A DNA stretch of 39,165 nucleotides from Solirubrobacteraceae bacterium (GTDB lineage Bacteria > Actinomycetota > Thermoleophilia > Solirubrobacterales > Solirubrobacteraceae): contig JBEKSK010000002.1 in NCBI GenBank assembly GCA_049517155.1, positions 1 through 39,165 on the forward strand, in the 5' to 3' direction. Every line of letters starts with the position of its first letter. Positions within the stretch are counted from its first letter, which is position 1. Below, one piece after another: positions 15,222 through 35,955 of this stretch. A model generated the notes under the pieces. It was given only the letters and a program-made list of their open reading frames with translations, made no database searches and was not told the origin of the DNA. The position numbers and the translations under genes were made by a program.

Positions 15222-15225
15222 GCGG

Positions 15226-16521: not shown

Positions 16522-16595
16522 GTCGGCGCGACGCTACCGAACTGCCGCCGACCGAGGGGAGCGAAACGCCCGCGTCACCCCGGTCGGCGCGGATC

Positions 16596-17084
16596 TCAGC
16601 GCTGCGCGGCGATCATCCAGCGCTGCTTTTCGAGCAGGCCGACCGTCGCAATCATCAAATCCTCGGTGACAGTGTCGTACTCGGCCGCCTGTTCCATCCG
16701 CTCGCGCGCGCCGGTGATCGTCTCGTCGAGCGCCGCGATCAGCGTCGTGATCACGGCGTCGGTGCGAAGTTCGCCGGGCGCGACTTCGGCGAGGCGGCTC
16801 TGTGTGCCAACCGTGCGCGCCTGACCGTCGGGGGCGACTCCGAGTGCCCGGCCGCGTTCCGCGGTCTCATCGGCCCGCGCCTGCCACTCCTCGACGAGTA
16901 CATCGAGATGCTCGTGCAGCGCCTGGAACTCGGGCCCGGTGAGGTTCCAGTGCAGGTGCTTGCCGAGCAGCGCGAGTTCGATCAGATCGATCAGCTCGCG
17001 CTGCAAGAGGCTACCCAGCGCCGCCCGCTCCTCGTGGCGCAGCGTCGGGTGGCCGTCGGTGACGATCAGGTGGTTCGCGGTCAT
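16596..17084 (-). CDS. dps: Dps family DNA-protection/ferritin-like protein.
   Basis: LQRELIDLIELALLGKHLHWNLTGPEFQALHEHLDVLVEEWQARADETAERGRALG matches the Dps ferroxidase-site region. An AAGGA RBS lies about 6 nt upstream of the ATG. Confidence 0.85.
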   Translation of the reverse strand: MTANHLIVTDGHPTLRHEERAALGSLLQRELIDLIELALLGKHLHWNLTGPEFQALHEHLDVLVEEWQARADETAERGRALGVAPDGQARTVGTQSRLAEVAPGELRTDAVITTLIAALDETITGARERMEQAAEYDTVTEDLMIATVGLLEKQRWMIAAQR

Positions 17085-21344: not shown

Positions 21345-22422
21345 TCAGGGCCTCTCCGCGGCGCCCGGATCTTGCCGCGATCACCTCCGCCATGATCGAG
21401 ATCGCGACCTCCTCGGGCGTAGCCGCGCCGATATCGAGCCCGCAGGGAGAGTGCACGCGCTCGAGTTCCTGCGGATCGACTCCCGCCGCGAGGAGCCGGG
21501 CACTGCGTTCCTTCGCGGTCCGGCGGCTGCCGAGCGCCCCGATGTAGCCGGCGTCACTGCGCAGCGCCGCGACGATCGCCGGCTCGTCGAACTTCGGGTC
21601 GTGGCTGAACACGATCACGCCGTCGCGCGGTCCAAGCTCGCGCTCGTCGATGGCGGGCGCCGGCCAGCCGATGTGCACCGTCGCGACGCGCGAAAAGCGC
21701 TCGGAACGCGCGAACGCCTCCCGCGCATCGGCGATCACGACCTCGTAGCCGGCCGCCGACGCGAGCGCGGCGACGGCGGCGGAGTAGTCGATGGCGCCGA
21801 CCAGCACGAGCGTCGGCGGCGTCCGGAAGGCCTGCAGATGGACACTCAGCCCGCCGCCGAGCGCCTCACCCGCTCGCCCGTAATGGCGCAGCGCGCTCGT
21901 GCCACGTTCGCTCAGCGCTGTGAGATCGCGCGCCACGCTCCGGTCGAGAAGCTCCGGTCCGTGCAGGCTGCCGATCACGCGTCCGTCGACGACTGCGAGC
22001 TTGGCCCCCGGCTCGTCCCCCTCGACGAGCGTGGCAATCCCGGCCGCCAACCCTCGTGCCGCAGCATCGAAGGCCTCGGCACTGGCTGCTCGGGCGCCAC
22101 CGGCCAGCTCATGCACGAAGACGTGGACAGTGCCGCCGCACATCAATCCGACCTCGTGTGCCGCCTCGTCAGACACTCCGTAGCGAAGCGCCCGCGGCGC
22201 GCCGTCGCCGGCCAGCATCTCGAGCGCGTTGACTACCACGTCGGCCTCCACGCAGCCGCCGGTGATCGAGCCTTCGATTGCGCCGTCGGCATCGATCAGC
22301 ATGAAGGCTCCAGGCTGAAACGGCGAGGACCCCTCGGCGTCGGTCAGCAGCGCGCAGACGATGCGTCGATCCTCGGCGACCCAGCGCAGTCCGACCGACA
22401 GCTGCTGGCTCACGACGCTCAT
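21313..22422 (-). CDS. xdhC: XdhC/CoxF family molybdoenzyme maturation (sulfuration/insertion) chaperone.
   Basis: N-terminal XdhC_CoxI region (GSSPFQPGAFMLIDADGAIEGSITGGCVE). C-terminal Rossmann region (LVLVGAIDYSAAVAALASAAGYEVVIAD...VIVFSHDPKFDEPAI...YIGALGSRRT). Confidence 0.85.
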   Translation of the reverse strand: MSVVSQQLSVGLRWVAEDRRIVCALLTDAEGSSPFQPGAFMLIDADGAIEGSITGGCVEADVVVNALEMLAGDGAPRALRYGVSDEAAHEVGLMCGGTVHVFVHELAGGARAASAEAFDAAARGLAAGIATLVEGDEPGAKLAVVDGRVIGSLHGPELLDRSVARDLTALSERGTSALRHYGRAGEALGGGLSVHLQAFRTPPTLVLVGAIDYSAAVAALASAAGYEVVIADAREAFARSERFSRVATVHIGWPAPAIDERELGPRDGVIVFSHDPKFDEPAIVAALRSDAGYIGALGSRRTAKERSARLLAAGVDPQELERVHSPCGLDIGAATPEEVAISIMAEVIAARSGRRGEALITTETTIRPR

Positions 22423-22443: not shown

Positions 22444-23706
22444 TCAAGGCCGTCGAGGCGATCTTCGCCCGCCTGAGCGGCTCGCCGCGATCGCCGCCGC
22501 CACCTCGGCGAGTGCCTCGAAGTTGTGCCCGCTCACGAGCGCATCGCAATACGGCAGGGCCGCCACCATTCCGCCTGCCGCGACGGAGAATGCGCTCGAG
22601 CTCGCCCGGGGATTGACCCAGACGATCCGGTGGGCGAGGCGCCCCAGTCGCTCCATCTCGCGTCCCACAAGCATCGGGTCGCCGCGCTCCCAGCCGTCGG
22701 AGAGGATCACGACCACGGCGCCACGCGCCATGCCGCGGCGGCCATGACGGTCGTTGAACGCCTTCAGCGCATCGCCAATCCGTGTCCCGCTCGACCAGTC
22801 CGGCGCGGCGGCTGCGGCGCGCTGGATCGCCCGCTCCGGGTTGCGGGATGCCAGCGAGCGCGTCAACCGCGTCAGGCGGGTGGCGAACACGAAGGCCTCG
22901 GCGCCCGGTCCACTGCCCGCCGCGCAGGTCAGGAACTGCAGGTATGCGCGCGCGTAGGGCTCCATCGAACCGGAGATGTCGCACATCATCACGAGGCGTC
23001 GAGGGACCACGCGCCGGCGCCGGCGGGCGAGTCGGATCGGGTCGCCGCCGGTACGCAAGCTGGCGCGCAGGCTCCGGCGCAGGTCGATGCGCTCGCCGTG
23101 ATGCCCCTTCTCGTAGCGGCGGGTGCGCCGCGTCGGAGTGCAGAGCTGCAGCTGGGACATCAGGCGGTAGAGCTGCGCGAGCTCGTTGGGCTCGAGCGCG
23201 TCGAAGCTCTTGCTTCGCAGCAGCTCCGCGTCACTGGCCATCGCCGTGGGCACCTCCACATCGGCCGCGTCATTGTTCTCGCCGAGCGCGCTTGGCGCCG
23301 TGGACGACAGATTCGCTCCGCGGGCGAACGCCTCTGAGCGCGCCGGAACCCCTGTGCGAGCGCTCCTCTCCCGCTCCTGCGCCGGCGTGGCTGCGGTTTG
23401 CACGTCCGCGGCATCTGACCCCAGTTGAGGGCCGTCGCCGCCACCGAACACCGAGCGGAAGACAGCATCAAACGCCCCGGCCTGCGCCGGGTCGGACACC
23501 GCCATGGCGCGCAGCGTCCAGTACAGTCGCCGGCGGGTCACCGGCCGCGCGAGCGTGAGCGCCCGGGCGAGGTCAGCCGCGCGGGCGGGCGTCATCGGGA
23601 CGGCGGCAGCCTGCAGACGGCGGCTGAACGCCCCAACGAGCGCCGGCAGATCGAGCTCGATCATGTCGACCTCTGACGCTGCCGCGGGCGCGGCAGCGTC
23701 AGTCAC
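22444..23706 (-). CDS. coxE: VWA domain-containing CoxE-like protein.
   Basis: RLVMMCDISGSMEPYARAYLQFL (MIDAS DxSxS) preceded by IDLRRSLRASLRTGGDP, typical of CoxE/VWA_CoxE. Confidence 0.8.
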   Translation of the reverse strand: MTDAAAPAAASEVDMIELDLPALVGAFSRRLQAAAVPMTPARAADLARALTLARPVTRRRLYWTLRAMAVSDPAQAGAFDAVFRSVFGGGDGPQLGSDAADVQTAATPAQERERSARTGVPARSEAFARGANLSSTAPSALGENNDAADVEVPTAMASDAELLRSKSFDALEPNELAQLYRLMSQLQLCTPTRRTRRYEKGHHGERIDLRRSLRASLRTGGDPIRLARRRRRVVPRRLVMMCDISGSMEPYARAYLQFLTCAAGSGPGAEAFVFATRLTRLTRSLASRNPERAIQRAAAAAPDWSSGTRIGDALKAFNDRHGRRGMARGAVVVILSDGWERGDPMLVGREMERLGRLAHRIVWVNPRASSSAFSVAAGGMVAALPYCDALVSGHNFEALAEVAAAIAASRSGGRRSPRRP

Positions 23707-24622
23707 CGGCGCGCACGAGCGCTTCGAGGCCAGCGGCGCGGATCACCTCCTGGTCCTCGCCGTATTTGAGCACCGATCCGAGCGTGAGATCCACGGCCGC
23801 GGCGTCCAGGCGCTCGATTCCAAGTAGGTCGAGAGCCGCTAGCCAGTCGATCGCCTCGGCGATGCCGGGCGGCTTCTGCACGTCGCTCTCGCGCATGCGA
23901 GAAACAGCGTTCGCGACCGCCACTGCAAGCGTCTCGGAGGCGCCCCTAACCCGCAGGCGCACGATCGCCACCTCACGCTGCGCACTCGGATAGTCGATCC
24001 AGTGGTAGAGGCAGCGGCGCTTCACGGCGTCGTGCAGGTCGCGCGTGCGGTTGGAGGTCAGGACGATGATCGGTGGGTGCGTCGCCCTGATCGTGCCGAT
24101 CTCGGGAATCGTCACCGCGGCCTCCGCGAGCAACTCGAGCAGAAACGCCTCGAAGTCGTCATCGGCACGGTCGACCTCGTCGATCAAAAGCACGGCTGGC
24201 CGCGGGCCGGGGTGTTCGAGCGCGCGCAGCAACGGGCGCCGGATGAGGTACTCGGAGCCAAACAGCTCCTCCTCGCCGAGCCGCGAGCCGCTCGAATCCG
24301 CAAGCCGAATCGCCAGCAGCTGACGCGGATAGTTCCACTCGTAAAGCGCTTCGGCGGCGTCGATCCCCTCGTAGCACTGCAGGCGGATCAGCGGCGTGTC
24401 CAGCACCCTCGCCAGTGACTTGGCGGCCTCGGTCTTGCCGACCCCTGCCTCGCCCTCGAGCAGCAGCGGCTGCGGCAGTCGCGCGCTCAGAAACATCGAA
24501 GTCGCGAGACCCTCGTCGACCAGATAGTCGACCGCGGCCAGGCGTTGCGTGAGCGTGTCCACGTCCGGCAGCAGCCGGCGCAGCTCTACGTCGGCTTCCC
24601 CCGTGATCTCGGGAGGGTTCAT
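23699..24622 (-). CDS. coxD: MoxR/CoxD-type AAA+ ATPase.
   Basis: Walker A LLLEGEAGVGKTEAAKSLA, Walker B VLLIDEVDRAD, and YEWNYPRQLL. The preferred start is the ATG at 24622. The stop overlaps the coxE start by 8 nt. Confidence 0.8.
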   Translation of the reverse strand: MNPPEITGEADVELRRLLPDVDTLTQRLAAVDYLVDEGLATSMFLSARLPQPLLLEGEAGVGKTEAAKSLARVLDTPLIRLQCYEGIDAAEALYEWNYPRQLLAIRLADSSGSRLGEEELFGSEYLIRRPLLRALEHPGPRPAVLLIDEVDRADDDFEAFLLELLAEAAVTIPEIGTIRATHPPIIVLTSNRTRDLHDAVKRRCLYHWIDYPSAQREVAIVRLRVRGASETLAVAVANAVSRMRESDVQKPPGIAEAIDWLAALDLLGIERLDAAAVDLTLGSVLKYGEDQEVIRAAGLEALVRAGD

Positions 24623-24794
24623 CGGGCGACCGCCGCCGGCGCGCCGGCGCCGGGCCGGAAGCCGAGCACCGCCTGCCCGAGGACCGCCCGGTGGTTGAGG
24701 GCTTTGCGGTCCAGCATCTGAGCGGCCGCGAACGATACTGCTCGAGCGCCGCGACCAACACACCGGACGGCAGCCCGGCTGGGCCCGTGCCGGC

Positions 24795-25184
24795 TCAGGC
24801 GCCCGTGTGAACCATCACCGAGGTGGCTTTCACCGTCGCCGTCGCGGCCATACCCGCGTGCAGCCCGAGCTCCTCGACGGAGTCCCTCGTGATCGCGGCG
24901 GTGATCCGGTGCGGACCGGCCTCGATCTCGACCAGCGCCATCACGCCGGAAACCTCGACAGACGTCACGACACCCGGGAATCGGTTGCGGGCGGAGAGGT
25001 TGCTCCGCGTCGCGTGGCGCTTGGGCGACGCCGAAACGCGATCCACCTCCGTCCGGTCGACCAGGCGGCGGTTTCGCTCGTCGCGAAGCGTCGTGATCTT
25101 CCCGGCTCGGTCCCAGCGGCGCAACGTGTCAACGCTCACACCCAGCGCCTTCGCCGCTTCACCCATCGTCAGAGTCTCCGACAT
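24795..25184 (-). CDS. Molybdate/tungstate-responsive regulator candidate: MerR/excisionase-type HTH fused to a TOBE (Mop) oxyanion-binding domain.
   Basis: From the ATG at 25184: HTH MGEAAKALGVSVDTLRRWDRAGKI. TOBE-like SARNRFPGVVTSVEVSGVMALVEIEAGPHRITAAITRDSVEELGLHAGMAATATVKATSVMV. The upstream 151 codons of the track ORF look non-coding. Confidence 0.75.
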   Translation of the reverse strand: MSETLTMGEAAKALGVSVDTLRRWDRAGKITTLRDERNRRLVDRTEVDRVSASPKRHATRSNLSARNRFPGVVTSVEVSGVMALVEIEAGPHRITAAITRDSVEELGLHAGMAATATVKATSVMVHTGA

Positions 25185-25355
25185 GCGCACGCAAAGCATG
25201 CCAGACCAAGGTGGACGCCGGCGACGCCGCCGGCTCGCGTTCGGTTGCTGCGTTTCGCGCCAAGCCCCAACCGCCTGAGGACTCGCGACCAACGCGCGGC
25301 GTGCCACGGCAAACGCCGGCGCGCGAGAGCTGCGCCGCAATCGAGTTCCGCGGAG

Positions 25356-25446
25356 TGCATATGCAATCGGACAACGAACATCGATCGGCAAGCAACAACG
25401 TCGGCAAAGACTGCGCGCGACCACATATGCAGTGCGCTTATATAGT
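25356..25446. promoter_or_regulatory. AT-rich control region for the tup-like operon: repeated CATATGCA boxes and a TATAGT -10-like hexamer.
   Basis: TGCATATGCA, a perfect 10-bp palindrome, at 25356..25365. CATATGCA again at 25424..25431, 66 bp apart. TCGGCAA direct repeats at 25385 and 25401. TATAGT at 25441..25446, 6 nt before the ATG at 25453. Confidence 0.45.
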
Positions 25447-25452
25447 GGGCCG

Positions 25453-27531
25453 ATGACACGACACAGCAGCCGATTCCCGGGCCGCCTCTGGCGGCCAATA
25501 AACCTTCCCGGTCGCCCTGGCCCTCTGCGCCACCTTCGACCGCTGCCCTTCCTCGTCGTTGCGGTCGTCGCGGCGCAACTGCTCGCCCCGGCGCTCGCGA
25601 GCGCAGACAGCTCCTCGACGCTCACCGTCGTCGGCACGAGCGACGTCAGCGACTCCGGCCTCGTCCCGAATCTGATCCAGCCGGAGTTCCACAGCGCCTA
25701 TCCGCAGTTCTCGTTTCACTACATCGGAACCGCCAGCGGCACCGCGATCACCGACGCCGAAACCGGCTCCGTGGGTGCGAGCGTCCTGATCGTCCACGCC
25801 GCATCACTGGAGAACCAGTTCGTTGCCGGCGGCTACTCCTACGAGCAGTACGGTCGCGCGATCTTCACGAACGACTTCGTGCTCGCCGGACCGACCGGCG
25901 ACCCCGCCGGCGTGTCGGCCGCCGGAGCCACGAACGGATCCAACAACATCGTCCAGGCCTTCGCCGACATCGCGGCGGCCGGATATAACAGCGGCGGCAC
26001 GCCGCTGGTCACGTTCGTGTCTCGAGGCGGTACGCCCGGCACGACCGTCGAGGAGCACCAGATCTGGGCCCTCGTCGCCAGCCTGGCCAGCCCGCCGGCG
26101 GGCCTGCACCTCTGCACCGTCAGCGCTGCCGACGGCGGTGGCGAGACACCCGTGTCGGCGGCGAGTGGCCTCGGTGGCCAGCCCTGCGGCGGACTGCCGC
26201 CCAGCGGGGATCTGCCGACTTGGTATGTGACCACCGGCGTCACGCAGGGCCCGAATGTCGTGGACGCCAACGCCTGCACGGGGTACGCGAGCCCCGCAAA
26301 CTCGTGCTACGTCCTGACCGACCGCGGCACCTACGACTATCTCGCCTCCGGCGCCGATCCCGCTGGCGCGATCCCGACCCTCGCGATCCTGACTCGCAAC
26401 AACAGCACCTCTGCCCCAGGGGGAGCTGATGAGCTGATCAACTACTTTCATTCCTACATCGTCAACCCAGCGAAACCCAGCGAGCAGGTCAACCTGACCG
26501 CCGCCGAGGATTTCGTGAACTTCCTCACCTCTCCCGCGCTCCAGGCGCAGCTGAAGACCTACCTCGACGACACGACCGACCCGGGCGGACCGCCGTTCGT
26601 CGCCGACGCCTCGCCAAGCCTCACCGACGCCGGCATCCCGAGCGTCGATGTCGCGGACACGCCGGTGACCGTGACCGGGACGCTGACGAACGCGGAGCCG
26701 GGCTATCCGGCCCTGGCGAGCCAGACGGTGACGGTTGACGAGATCGAGGCGGGACTGCCGGTGGCAGTCGCCAGCGGGACGACGAACTCGAGCGGCAGCT
26801 ACAGCATCACGTTCACGCCCACCTCGAGCGGCGCATACCAGGTCGCGACGGGCCAGATCGCCCAGGTCGAGAACAGTGCGCTCAGCCCGGTGTTTGGCGA
26901 TCTGCTCTCACCGGCCGCGACCGCCGCGGTCACGATGAGCGTGCAGGGATCGGTGTCGATCGCCTCGGCGTCGGCGCGTGCCGGCATCGTCACCGTCTCA
27001 GGATCGATCGCGCCGGCTGCCCCAGACGCCAACGCGGCGGTCGCGCTGCTGGCGCGCCCGAGCGGCTCGACGAAAAGCTACTCGGAGATCGGCGCGGCGC
27101 CGCTTGTCGCGGGCCAGAGCTCCTACACGATCTCAAGCCCCCTGGCCAAGGGCAGCTGGCAACTCGAGACGAGCTACACCGATCCTGGAGCTCTGCTCGC
27201 CGCAACGGCCACGGGTGAGGTCACCGTCGATAACGCCGGCGGGTCGAGCGTCACCTTGAGCAAGGCCAAGGTCAGCGCCGGGAAGCTCACGCTGACCGGG
27301 ACGATCAGCCCTGATCCGATCGCGACGGGCGCAAGGGTCGAGCTCTTCGGGCTGCGCAGCGGCAGCACGAAGTTCACGAAGCTGGCCGCTGCGACGCTCA
27401 AGATCGACCAGACGACGTTCACGATCAAAGCCAAGCTGAGGCGTGGATATCACTGGATACTGCAGCTTGAATACGTCCAGACAGGGCAGCGCACGAGCTA
27501 TTCGAAGCTCAGCACGATCGACGTACACTAG
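25453..27531 (+). CDS. tupA: TupA-family (tungstate/molybdate-type) periplasmic-binding-protein domain fused to three C-terminal beta-sandwich-like repeats. Secreted, no lipobox.
   Basis: The PBP part matches the TupA layout: LTVVGTSDVSDSGLVPNLIQPEF, IGTASGTA, LIVHAASLENQFVAGG, TNDFVLAGPTGDPAGV, FVSRGGTPGTTVEEHQIW, WYVTTG, YVLTDRGTYDYL, LINYFHSYIVNP. The C-terminal ~300 aa form repeats (VTVTGTL.., IVTVSGSIAP..GSTKSY.., KLTLTGTISP..GSTKFT..). Signal peptide ...LLAPALASA. An alternative GTG start is at 25432. Confidence 0.75.
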   Translation: MTRHSSRFPGRLWRPINLPGRPGPLRHLRPLPFLVVAVVAAQLLAPALASADSSSTLTVVGTSDVSDSGLVPNLIQPEFHSAYPQFSFHYIGTASGTAITDAETGSVGASVLIVHAASLENQFVAGGYSYEQYGRAIFTNDFVLAGPTGDPAGVSAAGATNGSNNIVQAFADIAAAGYNSGGTPLVTFVSRGGTPGTTVEEHQIWALVASLASPPAGLHLCTVSAADGGGETPVSAASGLGGQPCGGLPPSGDLPTWYVTTGVTQGPNVVDANACTGYASPANSCYVLTDRGTYDYLASGADPAGAIPTLAILTRNNSTSAPGGADELINYFHSYIVNPAKPSEQVNLTAAEDFVNFLTSPALQAQLKTYLDDTTDPGGPPFVADASPSLTDAGIPSVDVADTPVTVTGTLTNAEPGYPALASQTVTVDEIEAGLPVAVASGTTNSSGSYSITFTPTSSGAYQVATGQIAQVENSALSPVFGDLLSPAATAAVTMSVQGSVSIASASARAGIVTVSGSIAPAAPDANAAVALLARPSGSTKSYSEIGAAPLVAGQSSYTISSPLAKGSWQLETSYTDPGALLAATATGEVTVDNAGGSSVTLSKAKVSAGKLTLTGTISPDPIATGARVELFGLRSGSTKFTKLAAATLKIDQTTFTIKAKLRRGYHWILQLEYVQTGQRTSYSKLSTIDVH

Positions 27532-27536
27532 GCCGC

Positions 27537-29132
27537 GTGACGCCCCGGCGAACTCGTGTGAACAGACAGCGCCGGACCGCCAGCCGCCGTCTCGGGATCC
27601 TGCCCGGGCGGCGCTTGGCGGTGCTCATCGTGCTCGCGGCGGGGCTGCTCGGATGCCTGGCGAGCGCAGCTTCGGCAGACGAGTCGATCGCGACGGCGAT
27701 CATCGTCAAGCCCGGTGAGCAATCCCCAAGCGAAGTGGCGCCGGTGTCTCTCTCGACGCTCCTGGCTACACCCGCCTGCGTGCCCTATTCCAACACCACC
27801 AGCACGCTCACCACCGTCGCCCCCTCCAGCAGCCAGTCGCTCACCACCTCGAGCGACACGTGGCCGATCTACACGATTCTGGCGTGCGGCCTGGGCCAGA
27901 CGCTGAGCGCCGGTGATTGGGTGCAGATACAGGACCCCTCGACCGGGCCTGAGGCGCCACTTTTCTACTCAGCCGGTGACCTGACGACCCCGAGCGACTT
28001 CCAGGACCCCGGGCAGGTCCCTCTGATCATCGCCGAGCCGGGCGAGAACGTCCTGCAGTACTACCGGCCGCAGCGACGGCCCGACGGCGGCGTGACCGAC
28101 GAGAACGCGTACGACTTCTTCCAGGTCAACCCCGGACCGATCACGATCTGGGTCGACGAGGGCGGATCTCCGCCCCTTTCGGTCGCGATTACCGGGGTTC
28201 CCGCCGGCGGCGTCACGGCGGGGGCAACCGTGAGCCTCACGGCCGCGGAGAATCCGAACGGCGCAACCCTCCCGGATCCGGCGAATCTCAGCTACAGCTG
28301 GACCAGCAACGACAGCGTCCAGTTCAGCAACGACGGCGCCGGGCAGGCCGTGCAAGCGACGCTCGGGGCCGCCGGCGAAGCCGAGGTCACAGTCGAGGTG
28401 CAAGACAACCAGGACGGCACCTTCGGATTCGCCAACGCAAGGATCACCGTCGGAGCACCCGGATCCGACGCGACATCTGCGACCCCCAACTCCTCCAACG
28501 GCCAGACGTCGCAGACATCCGCCCCTGCGACCGGCCCCAAGCAGAGCAACGGCAGCGCGACCGGCGGAACCGCGGAGCCCCGCCACCACAGCGCTCCCGT
28601 CGCACCGGGCGCCGGCAGCGGACAGAGCAGCGGCGCTCCCGCCACCGCCAAACCGAGGCCTGCTCCCAAGAGCGAATCCGCGCCAAGCAGCGCGACGACC
28701 GGGGCCTCCTCCACGAAAGCAGCCCCGACCGACTCCGGGCACCCGGCGCCGTCAAGCTCTCCGCAAGCGGTGAGCGGCTCCGCCGGCGCGGCGGCCCACG
28801 CCTCGCAGCCCCCTGGTCACGCCGCCCGGCCCAGCGCACGCCTCACGAGGCCGCCCACCGCTTCGCCCACCCACATGGCCGCAACAACACGCCAGGCACG
28901 GGTCACGGGACGGCTGATCGAAGGCGTGACGGTGCTCCCGGCCGCCGCGAGCCCGCTCGTCTACGCAGTCCCGCCGACAATCGCGACGGCAGCGCCTGTG
29001 CGCCGCGGCGCGGTCGCCTCCGCCCTCCCCGCGCTCGCCGCTGGACTCGTCGTGACCCTGCTCTTCAGCCTGGGCGCCGGGCGCGAGCTGCGCTGGCGAC
29101 GGCGCCTGGGCGCGCGGCTGCACGGAAGCTGA
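27537..29132 (+). CDS. Surface protein of unknown function: signal peptide, globular region with a PKD/Ig-like segment, ~140-aa Pro/Ser/Ala/Gly-rich spacer, C-terminal TM anchor with a basic tail.
   Basis: Signal peptide RRLAVLIVLAAGLLGCLASAASA. Ig-like segment SVAITGVPAGGVTAGATVSLTAAENP...EVTVEVQD. Low complexity spans about 28450..28890. C-terminus LPALAAGLVVTLLFSLGAGRELRWRRRLGARLHGS. It starts 6 nt after the tupA-like stop. Confidence 0.7.
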   Translation: MTPRRTRVNRQRRTASRRLGILPGRRLAVLIVLAAGLLGCLASAASADESIATAIIVKPGEQSPSEVAPVSLSTLLATPACVPYSNTTSTLTTVAPSSSQSLTTSSDTWPIYTILACGLGQTLSAGDWVQIQDPSTGPEAPLFYSAGDLTTPSDFQDPGQVPLIIAEPGENVLQYYRPQRRPDGGVTDENAYDFFQVNPGPITIWVDEGGSPPLSVAITGVPAGGVTAGATVSLTAAENPNGATLPDPANLSYSWTSNDSVQFSNDGAGQAVQATLGAAGEAEVTVEVQDNQDGTFGFANARITVGAPGSDATSATPNSSNGQTSQTSAPATGPKQSNGSATGGTAEPRHHSAPVAPGAGSGQSSGAPATAKPRPAPKSESAPSSATTGASSTKAAPTDSGHPAPSSSPQAVSGSAGAAAHASQPPGHAARPSARLTRPPTASPTHMAATTRQARVTGRLIEGVTVLPAAASPLVYAVPPTIATAAPVRRGAVASALPALAAGLVVTLLFSLGAGRELRWRRRLGARLHGS

Positions 29133-29161
29133 CGGAGGCCCGCTGGCTGGCCCGCCCGAGT

Positions 29162-29833
29162 ATGCGTTCACTTTCCCCGATCCTCGCACTGAGCTCGCAC
29201 GACATCGACGAGGCGATCTTCCACGTCGCGAGCGTGCTCGAGGTGCCCGTGCTGATCCTCGCGCTGCTCGCCCTCGCCATGGTGATCCTCGAACTCGGAA
29301 GCTTCGTGATCGAGTTGCGGCGCCGGCGACGGCGCCGTTTCACGGCCCTCTCGAGTGGAGCCGAGCGGGCGCGGGAGGCGCTCGCGATCGACGATCGCCG
29401 GGGCGCCGCGGCGGCGCTGCACGGACTCGCGCGCAGCGCGGCGATGGCCGACACGCTGGCGTTCATCGCCGCTCACGCGCGCCGGGACGGGAGCGACTAC
29501 GAGCTCAACAAGGCGCTCGCCGACTTCGACTTCAGCTCGCGACGACGGCTCGACCGCACCCGGCTGCTCGTCCGCGTCGGACCGGCGCTCGGCCTGATGG
29601 GAACGCTCATCCCGCTCTCGCCCGCGCTCACCGGGCTCGCCAACGGCAACACCTCGACGCTCAGCAACGACCTGCGTCTGGCCTTCAGCGTCACCGTCGT
29701 CGGACTGATGATCGGCGCGATCGCGTTCGGACTCTCGCTCACGCGCGACCGCATGTACGGGCAGGACCTCTCCGACCTCGAATACGTGGCCGCCGCCATC
29801 AGCGATCCGCCGGCGCCGGTGAGCACACGATGA
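29162..29833 (+). CDS. MotA/TolQ/ExbB family proton-channel protein.
   Basis: Three TM segments in the ExbB arrangement (TM1, long cytoplasmic loop, TM2-TM3). Family motif RVGPALGLMGTLIPLSPAL...LAFSVTVVGLMIGAIAFGLSL. The stop overlaps the next start (ATGA at 29830..29833). Confidence 0.75.
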   Translation: MRSLSPILALSSHDIDEAIFHVASVLEVPVLILALLALAMVILELGSFVIELRRRRRRRFTALSSGAERAREALAIDDRRGAAAALHGLARSAAMADTLAFIAAHARRDGSDYELNKALADFDFSSRRRLDRTRLLVRVGPALGLMGTLIPLSPALTGLANGNTSTLSNDLRLAFSVTVVGLMIGAIAFGLSLTRDRMYGQDLSDLEYVAAAISDPPAPVSTR

Positions 29834-30165
29834 TCTCGGTCACCCCGCACGCCCGCAACCGCGAGGACCGAGCCGGCGACCCGCTCGACGGCCTTGTCAA
29901 CCTGTTCGATCTGGGGATCGTCCTCGCCGTCGCGTTTCTGCTGGCGGCGCTCTCCTCCCTGCATCTGGCCGGCACGATCACCAGTCACGGCCTCCACGCC
30001 ACGCCGGCCAAGATCATCGTGGTCCAGCCGGGCCAGACCGTCGCGCCGCTGCCGAAGCCCGGAACGCGCACGATCGGCCGGGGCACTCAGGCCGGCATTG
30101 TCTACCGCCTCGCCAACGGAGAGCTCGTGTACGTCCAGGCGGCGCCGCGCAAAAAGAGCCGCTGA
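29830..30165 (+). CDS. ExbD/TolR-like single-pass membrane protein. From memory it resembles the DUF2149 type.
   Basis: 111 aa. DPLDGLVNLFDLGIVLAVAFLLAAL carries an Asp at the start of the TM helix (codon 29908..29910), as in ExbD/TolR/MotB. A small extracytoplasmic domain follows. The stop TGA at 30163..30165 is followed directly by the GTG start of the first permease. Confidence 0.6.
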   Translation: MISVTPHARNREDRAGDPLDGLVNLFDLGIVLAVAFLLAALSSLHLAGTITSHGLHATPAKIIVVQPGQTVAPLPKPGTRTIGRGTQAGIVYRLANGELVYVQAAPRKKSR

Positions 30166-30891
30166 GTGGCCTATCTCTGGCACGAGCTGCGCAGCGCGGT
30201 CCCGCTGATCGTGAGCGGGAACGCCTACATCCTCGCCGTCACCTGGGTCACGATCCGTGTGGCCGTGGTGTCCACCGCCGCGGCGCTCGTGATCGGCCTG
30301 CCGATCGGGCTCACGCTCGGCCTCGGGCGTTTCCGCGGCCGACGCGCGCTGCACATCCTCGCCAATGCAAGCCTCGCGCTGCCACCCGTGATCGTCGGCG
30401 TTGGGGTCCTTTTGCTGCTGCTCCCAGCCGGGGCGTTCGGCTCGCTGCGGATCGAGTTCACGCTGCGCGGCGTGTACGTCGCGCAAACAATTCTCGCCCT
30501 CCCCTACATCGTTGCTCTCACCCCGGCTGCGATCCAGGCGCTACCGCCCGGCCTGCTCGCGCAGGCGCGGCTGCTCGGCGCCGGGCGCCGCCAGCTCGCG
30601 CTGCTAGCGCTGCGCGAGGCCAAGATCGGCGTGTTCGCGGCCGTGATCGCCGCCCTCGGCGCAGCGCTCTCCGAGGTCGGCGCAGTGGTCATCGTCGGCG
30701 CGAACATCGCAGGTCACGACCAGACGCTCGCCAGCGCGGTGCTCGCGCAGATCAACGACTACGCGAACTATCCCTACGCCCTGGCGATCGGCCTCGTGCT
30801 GCTCGCACTCATCCTCGTGCTGGTCGGCCTGCTCACGGTGCTCCAGCAACGCACAAGCGGAATCCAGCTGCGCTTCCGGGGACTGCCTTGA
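30166..30891 (+). CDS. tupB: ABC transporter permease, TupB-like (paralogue 1).
   Basis: Six-TM permease with the EAA-loop region LLGAGRRQLALLALREAKIGVFAAVIAALGAALSEVGAVVIVGANIAGHDQTLASAVL. Confidence 0.8.
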   Translation: MAYLWHELRSAVPLIVSGNAYILAVTWVTIRVAVVSTAAALVIGLPIGLTLGLGRFRGRRALHILANASLALPPVIVGVGVLLLLLPAGAFGSLRIEFTLRGVYVAQTILALPYIVALTPAAIQALPPGLLAQARLLGAGRRQLALLALREAKIGVFAAVIAALGAALSEVGAVVIVGANIAGHDQTLASAVLAQINDYANYPYALAIGLVLLALILVLVGLLTVLQQRTSGIQLRFRGLP

Positions 30892-30951
30892 CGCGGGCCC
30901 GCCGGCGCACAATCGCGCGGGCGCGCCGCTCGCCGCCGACCGCCCCGGCGT

Positions 30952-30976
30952 CGCCCGGGCACCACCCGCCCGGGCG
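30952..30976 (+). other. Intercistronic GC hairpin between the two permease genes.
   Basis: CGCCCGGGC-ACCACCC-GCCCGGGCG: a 9-bp perfect stem and 7-nt loop ending 14 nt before the tupB2 ATG. No U-tract. Confidence 0.4.
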
Positions 30977-30990
30977 GCAGGATCCTTGAC

Positions 30991-31713
30991 ATGCACCTGC
31001 TGTGGGAGGAGCTTCGCAGTGCCGTGCCGCTCATCGTGCACGGGAACCCCTACCTGCTGAGCATCGTCTCCTTCACCGTCGAGGTCGCCGCGATCGCGAC
31101 GGCGGCTGCGGCCTTAATCGGACTGCCGATCGGCCTCGCGATCGGGCTCGGGCGCTTCCGCGGCAGACACGCGCTGCACGTGCTGGCCAACGCGAGCCTA
31201 GGCCTGCCACCCGTGCTGGTCGGGCTGTTTCTGTTCCTCATCCTCGTGCCGCAGGGCCCGCTCGGCTCGCTGCATCTGCTCATCACCAAGCAGGCCGTGT
31301 TCATCGCGCAGACGATCCTCGCTCTCCCCTACGTCGTCGCGCTCACCGCAGCGGCGATCCAGGGGCTCCCGCAGGGGCTCCTGTCGCAGGCGCGCGTGCT
31401 CGGCGCCGGCCGCCGCCAGCTCGCCACACTCGCGCTGCGCGAAGCGAGAATCGGTGTGATGGCCGCGCTGATCGCGGCGCTTGGGTCCGCACTGTCGGAG
31501 GTCGGCGCGATCGTCATCGTCGGCGGCAACGTGTACGGCTTCGACCAGACTCTCGCGAGTGCCGCGCTGTATGAGGCAAACGCAGCCCGCTACGACGACG
31601 CCGTAGCAATCGGGATTGTCCTGATCGCGCTGATCCTGGTCCTGATGTGCGCCGTCGGCGTGCTTCAGCAGCAGGGCGCGGGCATCCGCCTGCGCTTTCG
31701 GTCGGCGTCGTGA
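30991..31713 (+). CDS. tupB: ABC transporter permease, TupB-like (paralogue 2).
   Basis: Collinear with paralogue 1 over its full length and, by eye, identical at well over half of positions (LWEELRSAVPLIVHGNPY.., LIGLPIGLAIGLGRFRGRHALHVLANASLGLPPV.., LGAGRRQLATLALREARIG.., SEVGAIVIVGGNVYGFDQTLASAAL). Confidence 0.8.
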   Translation: MHLLWEELRSAVPLIVHGNPYLLSIVSFTVEVAAIATAAAALIGLPIGLAIGLGRFRGRHALHVLANASLGLPPVLVGLFLFLILVPQGPLGSLHLLITKQAVFIAQTILALPYVVALTAAAIQGLPQGLLSQARVLGAGRRQLATLALREARIGVMAALIAALGSALSEVGAIVIVGGNVYGFDQTLASAALYEANAARYDDAVAIGIVLIALILVLMCAVGVLQQQGAGIRLRFRSAS

Positions 31714-32678
31714 GCGAAAAGCAGTCCCACGCGAATGCGGCGCTGTTGCGCTGCGAGAACCTGAGCGTGTGCCGCGGCGCGCGCGAGGTCGTCACCGACG
31801 TCAGCCTGGAGCTTCGCGCCGGCGAGCTGGTCGCCCTGCTCGGGCCCAACGGCGCCGGCAAGAGCACGCTGCTCGACGCGCTCGCCGGTGTGCTGGCGCC
31901 CGCGCAGGGGCGGGTCGAGCGCGCCGGCCGCGTCGCGATCGCGCTCCAGGCGCCCGATCTCGCGCGCCGCACCGTCCTCGCGAATGTGATGCTTGCGCTC
32001 GGCTGGTGGGGTGTCCCCGGCCACGAGCGCGAGGATCGCGCGCGCGCCGCGCTGCGAGCGCTGGGCGGCGAGCACCTCGCCCAGCGCCAGGCTGCGAGCC
32101 TCTCCGGCGGCGAGCGCCGTCGCGTGCACCTGGCTCGCGCGATCGCCGTGCGCCCCGACGTCCTGATGCTTGACGAGCCCTTCGGCGGCCTCGACACCGA
32201 GACGCGGGCGACGCTCCTCGACGACGCGGTCGGCGCACTGCGCTCGCAGGCCAGAGCAACCCTCGTCGTCGTCCACGACCGCAGCGAGGCATGGGCGCTC
32301 GCCGACCGCCTGCTGATCCTGATCGGTGGCCGGCTCGTCGCGGAAGGCACCCCACGCGACCTGCTGGAGCGACCCCCGAGCGCGCTCGTCGCCCGCTTCC
32401 TGGGGTTTGACGGATCGCTGCAGGACGGCGGCGAGTTGCTGTTGACGAGACCTGCTCACGTCGCGCTCGACCCGGCCGGCCCGCTGCGCGCCCGCGTCAC
32501 GCGAGCCGTCGCGCTGGAGGACGGCGTGCGCCTCGAACTCGAGCTCGACAGCGGACGGCTCTACACCGTGGCGCCGCTGCCTGCTCCCCGGCCGAGTGAC
32601 ACCGTGCGTGTGCGCATCGACGGCGGCGCCCGCTTCGCCCGCAGCGTGACAGACGACGGCGCGGCGCCCAGTCCTTAG
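31710..32678 (+). CDS. tupC: ABC transporter ATP-binding protein with a C-terminal TOBE-like domain (TupC-like).
   Basis: Walker A LLGPNGAGKSTLLD, signature LSGGERRRVHLARA, Walker B VLMLDEPFGGLD. The GTG start at 31710 overlaps the permease stop (GTGA). The track ORF begins earlier, at 31647, inside tupB2. Confidence 0.8.
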   Translation: MSEKQSHANAALLRCENLSVCRGAREVVTDVSLELRAGELVALLGPNGAGKSTLLDALAGVLAPAQGRVERAGRVAIALQAPDLARRTVLANVMLALGWWGVPGHEREDRARAALRALGGEHLAQRQAASLSGGERRRVHLARAIAVRPDVLMLDEPFGGLDTETRATLLDDAVGALRSQARATLVVVHDRSEAWALADRLLILIGGRLVAEGTPRDLLERPPSALVARFLGFDGSLQDGGELLLTRPAHVALDPAGPLRARVTRAVALEDGVRLELELDSGRLYTVAPLPAPRPSDTVRVRIDGGARFARSVTDDGAAPSP

Positions 32679-33247: not shown

Positions 33248-33727
33248 CTAGTGCTCGCTGCGCACATCCGCCATCAGCGCCACGGCGTGCGGCAGCGCAT
33301 CGGCAATCGCCGCGGCGGCCTGCTCGATCGACCGCGGCGAGCCGGGGAAGTTGATGATCAGCGTCGCGCCGCGAATGCCCGCCACGCCCCGCGAGAGCAG
33401 CCAGTGCTTGGTGTGCGCCCGCGACGCTTCGCGCATCGCCTCGGCGATACCCGGCACCTCACGTTCGATCACGCTCCGTGTCGCCTCCGGCGTGACATCG
33501 CGCGGGGCGACGCCGGTACCGCCGGTCGTCAGCACCAGCGCGCATTGATCGACGTCGCTGAGGTGGCGCAGCCGCCCCGCGATCATCCCCAGCTCGTCGG
33601 AGATCACCTCGCGCGCGACGACCTCGCCGCCGATGCCCACGGCGAACTGCTCGAGGCGATCGCCGCTCTCGTCGCCGCCCACTCCCGCCGCCCGCGACGT
33701 GCTGACCGTGATGATCGCCACACGCAC
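33248..33727 (-). CDS. moaB: MoaB/MogA family molybdenum cofactor biosynthesis protein.
   Basis: MRVAIITVSTSRAAG...DQCALVLTTGGTGVAPRDVTPEAT...PGSPRS, the canonical MoCF_biosynth domain. Confidence 0.85.
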   Translation of the reverse strand: MRVAIITVSTSRAAGVGGDESGDRLEQFAVGIGGEVVAREVISDELGMIAGRLRHLSDVDQCALVLTTGGTGVAPRDVTPEATRSVIEREVPGIAEAMREASRAHTKHWLLSRGVAGIRGATLIINFPGSPRSIEQAAAAIADALPHAVALMADVRSEH

Positions 33728-33729
33728 GC

Positions 33730-34218
33730 TCAGCCGCCTTCTTCCAGGCGCCAGTCGTTGCGCCCACCGGTCTTCTCGAGCAGCACGACCTGCTCGACCG
33801 CCACCCCGCGCTCGAGTCCCTTGACCATGTCGTAGACGGTCAGCGCGGCGACACTACAGGCGACCATCGCCTCCATCTCGACGCCGGTGGCAGCCGACAC
33901 GGACACCTCGGAGATCAGCTCGACGAGGCCGCCCTCAACGTCCACCCCCGCGCGAACGTCGACGAAGCTGAGCGCGATCGGGTGTGCGAGCGGAATCAGC
34001 GCCGCGGTCTGCTTGGCCGCCATGATCCCGGCGAGCCTGGCGGTGCCCAGCACCTCCCCCTTCGCCACGTTGCCGGCGACGATCGCCGCGGCCGTCTCGC
34101 GCGACATGCGAACTCGCGCGCGGGCGCGCGCGCGACGTTCGCTCACCGGCTTGGAGCCGACGTCGACCATCCGGGCGTTGCCGTCAGCGTCGAGGTGCGT
34201 GAGGCGCGCGCCACTCAT
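33730..34218 (-). CDS. moaC: Cyclic pyranopterin monophosphate synthase accessory protein MoaC.
   Basis: LTHLDADGNARMVDVGSKPVSERRA...LIPLAHP...TGVEMEAM...ALTVYDM.K. The ATG overlaps the upstream stop (ATGA at 34215..34218). Confidence 0.9.
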   Translation of the reverse strand: MSGARLTHLDADGNARMVDVGSKPVSERRARARARVRMSRETAAAIVAGNVAKGEVLGTARLAGIMAAKQTAALIPLAHPIALSFVDVRAGVDVEGGLVELISEVSVSAATGVEMEAMVACSVAALTVYDMVKGLERGVAVEQVVLLEKTGGRNDWRLEEGG

Positions 34219-34892
34219 GTGCCCGCCGCGTCCGCCGGCAGCGCGACTGCCTCGCCCGCCACCCAGCGCACCTCGCCGCCGTCCAGCTCCCGCTTCCAGA
34301 TCGGTGCCTCCGCCTTGATCCGGTCGATCAGCTCACGCGCACCCGCGAAGGCGGCATCGCGGTGTGCCGCCGAGACCGCCACGACGACGCCCGGCTCCCC
34401 CAGCGCAACGCGCCCCACGCGGTGCTCGGCGGCCGCTGCCGCCAGGCCATGGCGGTGCACGCACTCCGCCGCGATCGCCGCCATGCGCTGCTCGGCCATT
34501 TCGCGATAGGCCTCATAGTCGAGAAACTCGACGTCGCGAACGGTGCCCTCGAAGGTGACGACGGCCCCGGCGCCGGGCCGGCGCACAAGCGCGGTGACAT
34601 CCGCGGGCGTGATCGGGGTCTCGCTGACGCGTACATCCGGGCCCGCGCCGCCGCTGACCGGTGGCAGCAGGGCAAGCTCGTCGCCCGCGTGCAGCGGTGT
34701 GTCCTCCCCGACCAGCTCGCGGTTGACGGCCATCCGCACCGGCAGCCGCTCGAGCAGATCGGCGAGCCGCGAGTCCTGCGCGAGCGCCGCCAGCGCGTCG
34801 CCCACGGTCGCCCCGTCAGCCAGCTCCGCCTCGATCGCGTCGGCTCCCGCGCGCTCACGCAGCTGGGCGAAAAGTCGTATCCGCAAGATCAT
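34215..34892 (-). CDS. moaDE: Fused molybdopterin synthase: MoaD (sulfur carrier) plus MoaE (catalytic subunit).
   Basis: The first ~81 aa are MoaD-like and end in ...LALLPPVSGG. A MoaE-like region follows directly (GAVVTFEGTVRD...EYEAYREMAE...VAVSAAHRDAAF...IDRIKAEAPIWK). Confidence 0.8.
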   Translation of the reverse strand: MILRIRLFAQLRERAGADAIEAELADGATVGDALAALAQDSRLADLLERLPVRMAVNRELVGEDTPLHAGDELALLPPVSGGAGPDVRVSETPITPADVTALVRRPGAGAVVTFEGTVRDVEFLDYEAYREMAEQRMAAIAAECVHRHGLAAAAAEHRVGRVALGEPGVVVAVSAAHRDAAFAGARELIDRIKAEAPIWKRELDGGEVRWVAGEAVALPADAAGT

Positions 34893-34956
34893 GACCGGCT
34901 CAGCCTACCCCGCCGCCGCCCGCGGCTCGCCGAGGTCGCCCTGTTATCTTCGCGTG

Positions 34957-35955
34957 ATGGCGGGAGGGGCGCAACTCACGGACGGCCACGGACGCGCGAT
35001 CGGCGATCTGCGCCTCTCGGTGACCGACCGCTGCGGCTTCCGCTGCCGCTACTGCATGCCGGCCGAGGGCATGCAGTGGCTCGAACGCGCGGAGCTTCTG
35101 AGCTTCGAGGAGATCGAGCGCCTCGTGCGCGTGCTGGTCGAGATGGGCGTACGCGATGTCCGCCTCACCGGCGGCGAACCGCTCCTGCGCCGCGAGCTGC
35201 CCCGCCTGGTCGCGATGCTGGCGGCGATCCCCGGGCTGAACGAGCTCGCGCTCACGACCAACGGCTACCAGCTCGAGCGCGACGCCCACGCACTGGTTCA
35301 CGCGGGCATTACGCGCTTCAACGTCTCCGTCGACTCACTCCAGCGCGAGCGCTTCAGCGAGATCACCCGCCGCGACGCGCTGGACAAGGTCCTGCGCGGC
35401 CTTGCGACGCTCGCCTCTTTCCCGCAGGCGCACCCGATCAAGGTCAACGCCGTCGCGATGCGCGGCTTCACCGAGACGGAGCTGATCCCTTTCGCCCGCT
35501 TCGCCCGCGAGCACCCCTACGAGGTCCGCTTCATCGAATTCATGCCGCTCGACGCCGACCACGCCTGGACGCCCGACGACGTGCTGAGCGGCGAGGAGAT
35601 CCGCGCGGCGATCCACGCCGTCTACCCACTCGAGCCCGAACCCCGCACGCCCAGCGCGACCTCACGAACCTTCCGCTTCGCGGACGGCCGTGGCCGGATC
35701 GGCTTCATCAACCCGGTTTCCGAGCCCTTCTGCGGCGACTGCAACAGGATCCGCGTGACCGCCGACGGCCAGCTGCGCACGTGCCTTTTCTCGCTGCGCG
35801 AAACGGACCTGCGCGCGGTGCTGCGCGGCGCTGGCGGCGACGACGAACTCGCGGCCGTACTGCGCGACGCCGTCTGGCGCAAGGAGCTCAAGCACCACAT
35901 CGGCGATCCGGGCTTCGTGCAGCCCGACCGCACGATGTCGGCCATCGGCGGCTGA
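34957..35955 (+). CDS. moaA: GTP 3',8-cyclase MoaA (radical SAM).
   Basis: From the ATG at 34957: DLRLSVTDRCGFRCRYCMP (CxxxCxxC), VRLTGGEPLLRR, and C-terminal FCGDCNRIRVTADGQLRTCLF. The upstream 138 codons of the track ORF overlap moaDE antisense. Confidence 0.9.
   Translation: MAGGAQLTDGHGRAIGDLRLSVTDRCGFRCRYCMPAEGMQWLERAELLSFEEIERLVRVLVEMGVRDVRLTGGEPLLRRELPRLVAMLAAIPGLNELALTTNGYQLERDAHALVHAGITRFNVSVDSLQRERFSEITRRDALDKVLRGLATLASFPQAHPIKVNAVAMRGFTETELIPFARFAREHPYEVRFIEFMPLDADHAWTPDDVLSGEEIRAAIHAVYPLEPEPRTPSATSRTFRFADGRGRIGFINPVSEPFCGDCNRIRVTADGQLRTCLFSLRETDLRAVLRGAGGDDELAAVLRDAVWRKELKHHIGDPGFVQPDRTMSAIGG

Follow-up and report, generated by a model that had tools for sequence, protein, structure and literature searches.

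We analyzed a window of 39,165 nucleotides (nt), the whole stretch of DNA studied here, from a Solirubrobacteraceae bacterium, and in particular a locus at positions 24795-32678. The window is about 70% G+C, and the locus consists of one minus-strand and seven plus-strand genes. Four of the latter encode the binding protein, two permeases and the ATPase of an ATP-binding cassette (ABC) importer that appears to be of the molybdate/tungstate (Mo/W) type. Between the binding-protein and permease genes lie three more, encoding a 531-amino-acid (aa) anchored surface protein, an ExbB-like protein and a DUF2149 protein; the last two are referred to below as the motor genes. The motor genes are embedded in the Tup-type importer operon and are co-inherited with it. 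By a narrow balance of the evidence, we favor the interpretation that the locus is a Mo/W-type importer with a built-in cassette that would act as a Ton-like, proton-driven force transducer. The cassette itself, a triad of anchored PKD protein, ExbB-like protein and DUF2149 protein, is portable and not specific to Tup operons. A first-pass annotation of this DNA had described a Tup operon with a motor, a description that should be widened to a Ton-like triad serving primary importers in single-membrane prokaryotes.

Conservation and co-inheritance of the motor genes

Relatives of the ExbB-like protein were sought in one genome per GTDB species, and among the 600 matches listed at least 597 encode one. 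The best 80 of the listed matches, all from Actinomycetota, were combined with three loci found earlier into a set of 83; carriers among the best 80 belong to Solirubrobacterales, Thermoleophilia, Conexibacter, Nocardioides, Aeromicrobium, Mycobacteriales and Frankiaceae. In all 83 loci the DUF2149 gene came directly after the MotA_ExbB gene, both with intact open reading frames (ORFs), and the two also adjoined each other in the loci examined from archaea, planctomycetes and elsewhere. Forty of the 83 had the same Tup-type operon, in most cases together with a Mop regulator, and these span Thermoleophilia, Nocardioidaceae, Mycobacteriales and Frankiaceae. A search in the reverse direction, starting from the binding protein, recovered 44 metagenome loci; where at least 2.4 kb of downstream sequence made a locus informative (n = 19), the motor was present every time.

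The motor genes also evolve under the same constraint as the transporter genes. At 0.14-0.29 in the ExbB-like gene and 0.13-0.23 in the DUF2149 gene, the ratios of nonsynonymous to synonymous substitution (dN/dS) equal those of the permeases (0.14-0.30) and the ATPase (0.17-0.24). Together, the recurrent gene order and the equal dN/dS values indicate that chance insertion does not account for the motor pair. The first-pass annotation had proposed that the motor is embedded in the operon and not merely nearby, which the recurrence in 40 of 83 and 19 of 19 loci bears out; it had also raised the possibility of a random local insertion missing from orthologous tup-type loci, and the motor is present in those loci.

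The gene junctions suggest translational coupling. On the plus strand, the exbB-like gene (29162-29833) and the DUF2149 gene (29830-30165) share an ATGA overlap, the DUF2149 stop directly abuts the GTG of permease 1 (30166-30891), and permease 2 (30991-31713) and the ATPase gene (31710-32678) share a GTGA overlap. The binding-protein gene is separated from the 531-aa gene (27537-29132) by 5 nt, and the latter from the exbB-like gene by 29 nt. The first-pass annotation had the three overlapping or abutting junctions right and overstated the binding-protein gap by one nucleotide (6 nt). A gap of 99 nt (30892-30990), absent from that annotation, lies between the two permeases; in relatives it is about 0-90 nt, mostly about 10-40 nt.

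A 2025 survey judged incomplete Ton systems in single-membrane Actinobacteria to be "likely non-functional" (PMC12204202). Applied here, that verdict would make the motor genes the decaying leftovers, without function, of an ancestral Ton system, and one metagenome contig does carry a deletion variant. However, the motor genes have dN/dS values of 0.13-0.29, the same as the permeases and ATPase, their catalytic-type residues are invariant in sequences down to 29-37% identity, and no ORF is broken in the 83 loci. The suggested translational coupling and the number of genomes encoding a relative speak against decay as well. Among the four rival explanations considered in this paper, the vestigial remnant is the only one that the data contradict, and we regard it as highly improbable.

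The deletion variant just mentioned (L103:3057-5509) had looked like a gene fusion, and was rejected as evidence. It has lost the anchored-protein gene in its entirety, together with the 3' end of the binding-protein gene and about 28 codons from the start of the exbB-like gene, so that the genes on either side are truncated. Either the copy is decaying or the deletion arose in assembly. Another metagenome contig (L091; JGI contig Ga0302319_10001718, 48.8 kb) is 100% identical to the window over the binding-protein gene and 99-100% identical over the rest of the operon, so further flanking sequence of the same organism exists.

The motor pair

The ExbB-like protein (223 aa, three transmembrane helices) scores 33.2 bits with the MotA_ExbB profile (PF01618), above the gathering score of 22.9. 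Its AF2 model (pLDDT 94.3) has three transmembrane helices and a long cytoplasmic helical domain. The top Foldseek matches in the PDB are E. coli ExbB structures (5sv0, 6tyi and 9ddo; ~207 columns, TM-score 0.5-0.6, probability 1.0), followed by PomA, TolQ and MotA. A direct PDB sequence search with the protein gave no match; with a profile of 47 diverse relatives, hhalign gave an alignment of 180 columns to ExbB/TolQ (E 1.6e-5, probability 79%). In those 47 sequences T148 (29603-29605) and T178 (29693-29695) are invariant, and they align with T148 and T181 of ExbB (T145 and T178 of TolQ), the channel threonines of the family. The full-length ExbB fold and both channel threonines are therefore common to this protein and the TonB-ExbB-ExbD system of E. 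coli, and the first-pass assignment of this ORF to ExbB is upheld by Pfam, profile comparison and predicted fold alike. The subfamily is small and distinct: by phmmer, only 1085 clusters at 50% identity were reachable among 1.84 billion representatives.

The adjacent gene encodes a 111-aa protein in the ExbD/TolR position. The sole Pfam family reported for it is DUF2149 (PF09919, 52.7 bits against 27.1, E 5.6e-14), and a PDB sequence search gave no match. It has a single helix with its N-terminus inside, followed by a short beta-rich ectodomain of ~55 residues. Asp27 (29908-29910) and the GDPLDGLVNLFD box before the helix do not vary among 40 sequences that are as little as 37% identical, and Asp27 aligns with D25 of ExbD and D23 of TolR. 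An hhalign comparison with ExbD/TolR covered 34 columns, comprising the N-terminus and the transmembrane segment, at a probability of 22.8%. Thus, the protein resembles ExbD in its one N-in helix and in the Asp at the D25 position; unlike ExbD, it has an ectodomain of only this short length, between which and that of ExbD no relationship is detectable. The label "ExbD-like" given in the first-pass annotation fits the position, the topology and the key Asp of the protein but not its family, which is DUF2149.

Both motor proteins have variants with additional domains. In several non-Tup loci (L036, L038, L043, L048 and L081-L083) a Pro/Thr/Gly-rich stretch of 30-90 residues extends the C-terminus of the DUF2149 protein. 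The DUF2149 proteins of the most distant group (L081-L083) are also extended at the N-terminus by a long cytoplasmic segment, and the anchored protein there has a longer cytoplasmic tail and lacks the G-A-x-x-E-x-R motif, which hints that the two proteins co-vary. Three low-GC ExbB-like proteins (P0216, P0243 and P0228) have an N-terminal extracellular domain of 200-450 residues fused directly to the ExbB-like domain, so that in all three the ectodomain is part of the motor subunit; one source names P0216 "ExbB/TolQ/LEA14-like". An apparent gene fusion in a fourth protein (P0159, 649 aa) was rejected as evidence, as its middle section looks frameshifted.

The anchored surface protein

The 531-aa protein is the only product of the locus to which profile searches assigned no family, as neither Pfam nor NCBIfam gave a match. 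It was delimited by hydropathy, composition and homology to PKD-domain proteins, and consists of a cleavable signal peptide (residues 1-47), an N-domain (~50-208), a PKD-like immunoglobulin (Ig) domain (~209-308), a linker of about 150 residues (~309-455) that is 55-73% Pro/Ala/Ser/Thr, a juxtamembrane strand (456-476), a helix (492-515) and a basic tail. With the binding protein it makes up the two large extracytoplasmic proteins that the first-pass annotation had recognized. A homologue search with the ectodomain found nothing. However, the same-position proteins of other loci are homologous to the 531-aa protein (hhalign 99.9%, E 1.8e-35) and have PKD matches, and the homology between Tup-type and heme-type anchored proteins spans the N-domain and the PKD domain.

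The anchored proteins diverge rapidly: their dN/dS is 0.58-0.80, and they share 25-35% identity where the ExbB-like proteins of the same genomes share 70-80%. The C-terminal elements do not follow this trend. The juxtamembrane strand (V-x-G-x-L-I) is 60-70% identical, compared with ~30% in the rest of the protein; here it is the segment RVTGRLIEGVTVLP (28902-28964), and its pattern, [VIL]-x-G-[REKQ]-[LIV]-[LIV], occurs in 32 of 72 anchored-protein orthologues. A C-terminal helix is present in 63 of the 72 upstream ORFs, and a strict G-x(1-4)-E-x-[RKQG] motif in 51, against a background of ~10 loose matches among ~870 other genes of the same loci. In the 531-aa protein this is G-A-G-R-E-L-R (29073-29093), a candidate motor-docking element at the cytoplasmic end of the helix. 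A DUF3344 protein that precedes the motor pair in another locus (L089) ends in VKGQVLV, a helix and TERMK, alike in its strand and its helix-end Glu/Arg. Since strand and motif recur on an unrelated ectodomain, the C-terminal unit is probably the part that meets the motor, and the pattern of conservation points to the C-terminal helix and juxtamembrane strand as its contacts.

The ectodomain itself gave few leads. Within the N-domain (27684-28160) there is a conserved R-P-x(4-8)-D-x-N-A-x-D segment, and a match to the molybdenum domain of SorA (sulfite:cytochrome c oxidoreductase) was sub-threshold (E ~0.3) and is not evidence. An SLBB/beta-grasp fold for the N-domain was considered and is unsupported by the N-domain profile searches. 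N-terminal lipidation of the protein was likewise discarded, as the lipobox-like LLGC is not conserved among orthologues. The Ser/Thr/Pro-rich linker could be O-mannosylated: in Aeromicrobium sp. Root472D3 (L055:6076-7602) a PMT-family protein O-mannosyltransferase is encoded directly upstream of the anchored PKD gene. Two PMT_2/PMT-family glycosyltransferases are encoded in the window (8875-10998 and 15226-16521).

The cassette could instead serve the surface protein, in its export, positioning, turnover, wall insertion or a role in adhesion, with any effect on transport being indirect. The rapid evolution of the protein is typical of exposed surface proteins, and about 31 of the 83 loci have no recognizable importer adjacent to the cassette, one of them having the O-mannosyltransferase immediately upstream. 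It is harder to explain in this way why the cassette stands between binding-protein and permease genes in 40 loci, with overlapping or abutting codons and with the reverse search in agreement, or why importers of scarce metal ligands, bacterial and archaeal, have acquired it time and again. We therefore consider an exclusive role in surface-protein biology unlikely.

The triad outside Tup-type loci

In 12 other actinobacterial loci, the motor pair comes after a gene for a 385-450-aa protein with the architecture of the 531-aa protein, and this gene in turn after genes for HtaA-domain proteins, a Peripla_BP_2 binding protein, a FecCD permease and an ATPase. Further actinobacterial triads adjoin a MacB/FtsX-type ABC system, an energy-coupling factor (ECF) transporter or a protein O-mannosyltransferase. 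Therefore, while the first-pass annotation correctly recognized a Tup operon with a motor, the restriction to Tup does not stand, the triad being found with heme, ECF and MacB-type systems too.

The pair is also found in more distant settings. In Methanosarcinaceae it lies between genes for a DUF2162 protein and a 1727-aa CobN-like protein. In an SLH-bearing organism (L089) it lies between DUF3344/SLH proteins and CbiQ with an ECF ATPase, and in an Actinomycetota metagenome-assembled genome (L090) the order is DUF4430/SLH proteins, ECF genes, a prenyltransferase-like protein and the pair. A further locus (L088) encodes a TonB-dependent receptor, a polytopic membrane protein, the pair, CobN and corrin genes; here, the protein preceding the pair is polytopic and not a PKD-domain arm. 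In Planctomycetes, the pair is preceded by a receptor, CobN and a canonical TonB with membrane helix, Pro-rich linker and TonB_C domain. The slot of the anchored protein in Actinomycetota is thus the slot of TonB in the planctomycete locus.

This equivalence bears on a different explanation of the cassette, namely that the pair is an ion channel or ion sensor that regulates the importer and performs no mechanical work, the anchored protein being only a tether or receptor. Transport could then be gated by membrane potential, or local protons could loosen oxyanion or heme from the binding protein. The channel residues Asp27, Thr148 and Thr178 are conserved, the cassette joins transporter classes that differ in mechanism, and the DUF2149 ectodomain is very short, with no recognizable wall-binding or ExbD-like domain. 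Against these points, in Planctomycetes the pair has a canonical TonB and a TonB-dependent receptor as neighbors, the docking-like motifs of the anchored protein favor a mechanical partner, and all characterized members of the ExbB/MotA/TolQ fold are force generators (PMC12905483). We give a purely regulatory role a small chance of being correct.

The importer and its molybdenum context

The importer is a divergent member of the Tup family. The binding protein (25453-27531, plus strand) matches PBP_like_2 in Pfam (E 1.5e-12), and its best relatives in the PDB are the tungstate-binding proteins 3lr1 (1.5e-12) and 5my5 (1.9e-11). The structural study of TupA highlights the TTTS motif, R118, T124 and D170 as oxyanion-site residues (PMC5517513). 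The binding protein keeps equivalents of R118 (in SRG), T124 (GT) and D170 (TDRGTY); the TTTS motif is VGTS here and varies among orthologues, and ligand specificity is not readable from it. Permease 1 (241 aa) and permease 2 (240 aa), both matching BPD_transp_1 in Pfam, exceed the NF038017 cutoff of 100 bits (147 and 169 bits, respectively). Scores against the Tup equivalogs were low: 43.9 bits for TupA (NF041772, cutoff 400), and 97 and 120 bits for the two permeases against TupB (NF041773, cutoff 320). As all of these lie far below the cutoffs, the system is more appropriately described as a divergent member of the Tup family than as an orthologue of characterized TupABC. Since some relatives have a single permease (L001, Nocardioides and Mycobacteriales), the TupB-like pair looks like a tandem duplication within Solirubrobacterales. 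The ATPase (322 aa from a GTG overlapping the permease 2 stop) matches ABC_tran (6.7e-29), and its C-terminal TOBE_2-like region is weak and below threshold (E 0.004).

The genetic context speaks for a function related to molybdenum or tungsten. The divergent regulator (129 aa; 24795-25184, minus strand, start at 25184) has a MerR-type helix-turn-helix (Pfam MerR, 2.4e-11) and a TOBE/Mop domain (Pfam TOBE, 5.4e-18; Mop TIGR00638, 58.5 bits against a cutoff of 55), and a homologue adjoins most Tup-type loci. Downstream lie genes for molybdenum cofactor (Moco) synthesis: MogA/MoaB (33248-33727), MoaC (33730-34218), a MoaD-MoaE fusion (34215-34892), MoaA (within 34543-35955) and MoeA (36024-37220). 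Upstream are molybdoenzyme maturation genes encoding XdhC (21313-22422), a CoxE-type VWA protein (22444-23706) and a CoxD-like AAA protein (23699-24763). Because of the TupA binding residues, the Mop regulator and the Moco and CoxD/E/XdhC flanks, we infer that the locus is a molybdate/tungstate-type ABC importer, with an oxyanion of this kind as its probable substrate.

The binding protein comprises a Sec signal, with cleavage at ALASA|D, a PBP domain extending to about residue 400 and an Ig-like C-terminal extension of ~300 aa. A lipobox is absent from it and from 35 of 37 Tup-type orthologues, including those of Nocardioides and Mycobacteriales, which have AxA|D signal-peptidase I sites instead. 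Motor-linked binding proteins therefore do not appear to be tethered in the usual Gram-positive manner. Such proteins lacking a lipobox are unusual for Gram-positive-type organisms, and heme-type ones in two further loci (L052 and L063) look alike. In one relative (L001), a ModA of canonical type, with the lipobox LATGC and a TIGR01256 score above cutoff, is encoded together with ModB and an ATPase ~4 kb downstream of the motor-linked operon (14678-16663). The presence of this lipoprotein ModABC makes the motor-linked Tup-type system a second, apparently specialized Mo/W route in that genome.

Secretion without a lipid anchor is what would be expected of a periplasm-like compartment, and the lineages concerned might have an unrecognized outer barrier, with the motor energizing an outer channel in the manner of an ordinary Ton system. 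The Mycobacteriales carriers indeed possess a mycolate outer membrane. However, genes for TonB_C, Plug or beta-barrel receptor proteins were found neither in the window nor in the actinobacterial loci examined, the ModA of the relative is a normal lipoprotein, and the carriers in Nocardioides and Aeromicrobium belong to classical single-membrane genera. We consider an outer barrier of this kind quite improbable.

Proposed mechanism and comparison with known systems

The reading that we favor, a Ton-like force transducer, can be put in mechanistic terms. The ExbB-like protein would form a ring around a DUF2149 dimer, in a 5:2 ratio by analogy with Ton, Tol and Mot (reviewed in PMC12905483), and protons would pass by way of Asp27 of DUF2149. 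The 531-aa protein would take the role of TonB: one helix with a docking motif would hold it in the membrane, and its proline-rich linker of ~150 residues would take the PKD domain and N-domain through the wall. Proton flow may then move or tension this arm via the helix and juxtamembrane strand; for comparison, the TonB helix binds ExbB and the TonB D-box binds ExbD. The arm may act on the free binding protein, through retrieval, docking or ligand stripping at the permease, and the membrane-crossing step would remain ATP-driven.

Several lines of evidence lead us to this proposal. They include the ExbB fold and family, the DUF2149 Asp matching ExbD D25, the invariable pairing in 83 loci, the recurrence of the Tup-type operon in 40 of them, the outcome of the reverse search, and dN/dS values that match those of the permeases and ATPase. 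They also include the TonB slot in Planctomycetes and the recruitment of the cassette to other importers of scarce ligands. The anchored proteins of Tup-type and heme-type loci are homologous, and the anchor motifs are conserved while the ectodomain diverges. Finally, the motor-linked binding proteins lack a lipobox and the ModA of a relative has one, and the substrate context described above points to Mo/W.

Several observations weigh against the proposal. DUF2149-type pairs are without experiment in the literature, their role being assumed even in Bacteroidota. The DUF2149 protein has no Pfam match to the ExbD/TolR family (PF02472) and no detectable homology to its periplasmic domain, and its structural model, built from a shallow alignment, is of low confidence (pLDDT 69), with an uninformative fold search. 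The 531-aa protein has no TonB_C domain (PF03544), its orthologues carrying PKD instead, and its anchor is C-terminal and runs from outside to inside, opposite to that of TonB, so the analogy is architectural only. Profile searches with the N-domain gave no Pfam family, and in the PDB gave only spurious matches to designed repeat proteins. About 31 of the 83 cassettes have no obvious transporter adjacent to them. The single-membrane envelope of Solirubrobacterales is itself presumed and, to our knowledge, ABC importers are not known to require extra energy for the unloading of binding proteins.

The resemblance to the Ton system of E. coli also extends to the association with uptake of scarce metal ligands. 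TonB and the 531-aa protein both have a membrane helix, a proline-rich linker and a distal globular domain, the linkers being analogous, not homologous; the N-terminal signal-anchor SHLS helix of TonB is replaced by a cleavable signal peptide. In contrast to the E. coli system, the genes here sit in an ABC importer operon of a Gram-positive-type lineage and an outer membrane receptor is absent. Compared with TupABC, as represented by Desulfovibrio alaskensis TupA (5my5), the locus shares the fold family of the binding protein, a TupB-like permease, the ABC ATPase, a Mo/W-type regulator and Moco genes nearby, and differs in the Ig-like tail, the missing lipid anchor, the two permease paralogues and the three genes between A and B.

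The motor pair has a named counterpart in the hmuYRSTUV operon of Bacteroidota, in which HmuU is annotated as MotA/TolQ/ExbB and HmuV as DUF2149, the same two-gene family pair. HmuU and HmuV are linked to metal-tetrapyrrole uptake, and their powering of HmuR, a TonB-dependent receptor, is assumed in the literature. HmuS is a CobN-like dechelatase, HmuT is predicted in the literature to be an inner-membrane protein, and the operon has no ABC importer.

The sister HtaA loci resemble the HtaA-HmuTUV system of the Corynebacterium type and the Isd system, in which wall-spanning capture feeds an ABC importer. Those relays are thought to hand ligand down affinity gradients with no input of energy at the wall, and the sister loci differ from them in the added proton-motor cassette. 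Zorya-type (ZorAB) anti-phage defense was considered for the cassette and set aside, as PADLOC gave no match for its three proteins and the neighbors are transporter genes.

The first-pass annotation took a proton motor coupled to an ABC importer to be an undescribed architecture. This appears to hold for the single-membrane arrangement; it does not hold for a motor beside an ABC importer as such, which is classical in double-membraned bacteria (TonB-ExbBD, TonB-dependent receptor and ABC system), and the HmuU/HmuV pair had already been named. Therefore, the novelty lies in the single-membrane setting, with TonB and the receptor missing. In the open-access literature and bioRxiv, we found no account of ExbB-type proteins with Gram-positive ABC, ECF or HtaA systems, and of the seven papers there in which DUF2149 appears, none deals with Actinobacteria or ABC importers.

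Other features of the locus and window

The first-pass annotation gave seven plus-strand ORFs and a divergent regulator, all of which are present where it placed them, and its suggestion of an actinobacterial context agrees with the lineage, Solirubrobacteraceae. The binding-protein ORF opens with a GTG at 25432, and the protein most likely starts at the ATG at 25453. A candidate -10-like box read from the sequence, TATAGT (25441-25446, plus strand), lies 6 nt 5' of this ATG and would be compatible with a leaderless transcript. A sigma-70 consensus scan gave no match, promoter and terminator consensus scans were uninformative, and an Rfam search of the window revealed no riboswitch or other RNA. 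Elsewhere in the window, a minus-strand gene (7708-8871) encodes a rubrerythrin-VIT1 fusion of the iron transport or storage type.

Implications

Motors of the Ton and Tol type are usually regarded as energizers of the outer membrane. Here, a distinct ExbB/DUF2149 subfamily under strong purifying selection is built into importer operons for several scarce metal ligands, and its cassette brings its own TonB-like arm in reversed topology. If the motor works mechanically at the wall, it would offer a new picture of uptake in Gram-positive-type bacteria and archaea. DUF2149 would gain a function, and the role of HmuU/HmuV in the heme system of gut and oral Bacteroidota would be clarified. It would also represent a minimal Ton-like system without an outer membrane, perhaps easier to study mechanistically. 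Culturable carriers such as Nocardioides fonticola, Aeromicrobium stalagmiti and Conexibacter stalactiti make the proposal directly testable.

More tentatively, and with somewhat less than even confidence, we suggest that single-membrane prokaryotes own a functional equivalent of the Ton system, in which an ExbB-like/DUF2149 motor drives a wall-spanning arm with interchangeable outer domains (PKD, DUF3344 and others) and a conserved docking unit of C-terminal helix and juxtamembrane strand. If this is true, the motor would power the capture or hand-off of scarce ligands (Mo/W oxyanions, heme and corrinoids) to ATP-driven ABC, ECF or MacB-type transporters, and Gram-positive-type cells, like Gram-negative ones, would draw on two energy sources in series for uptake.

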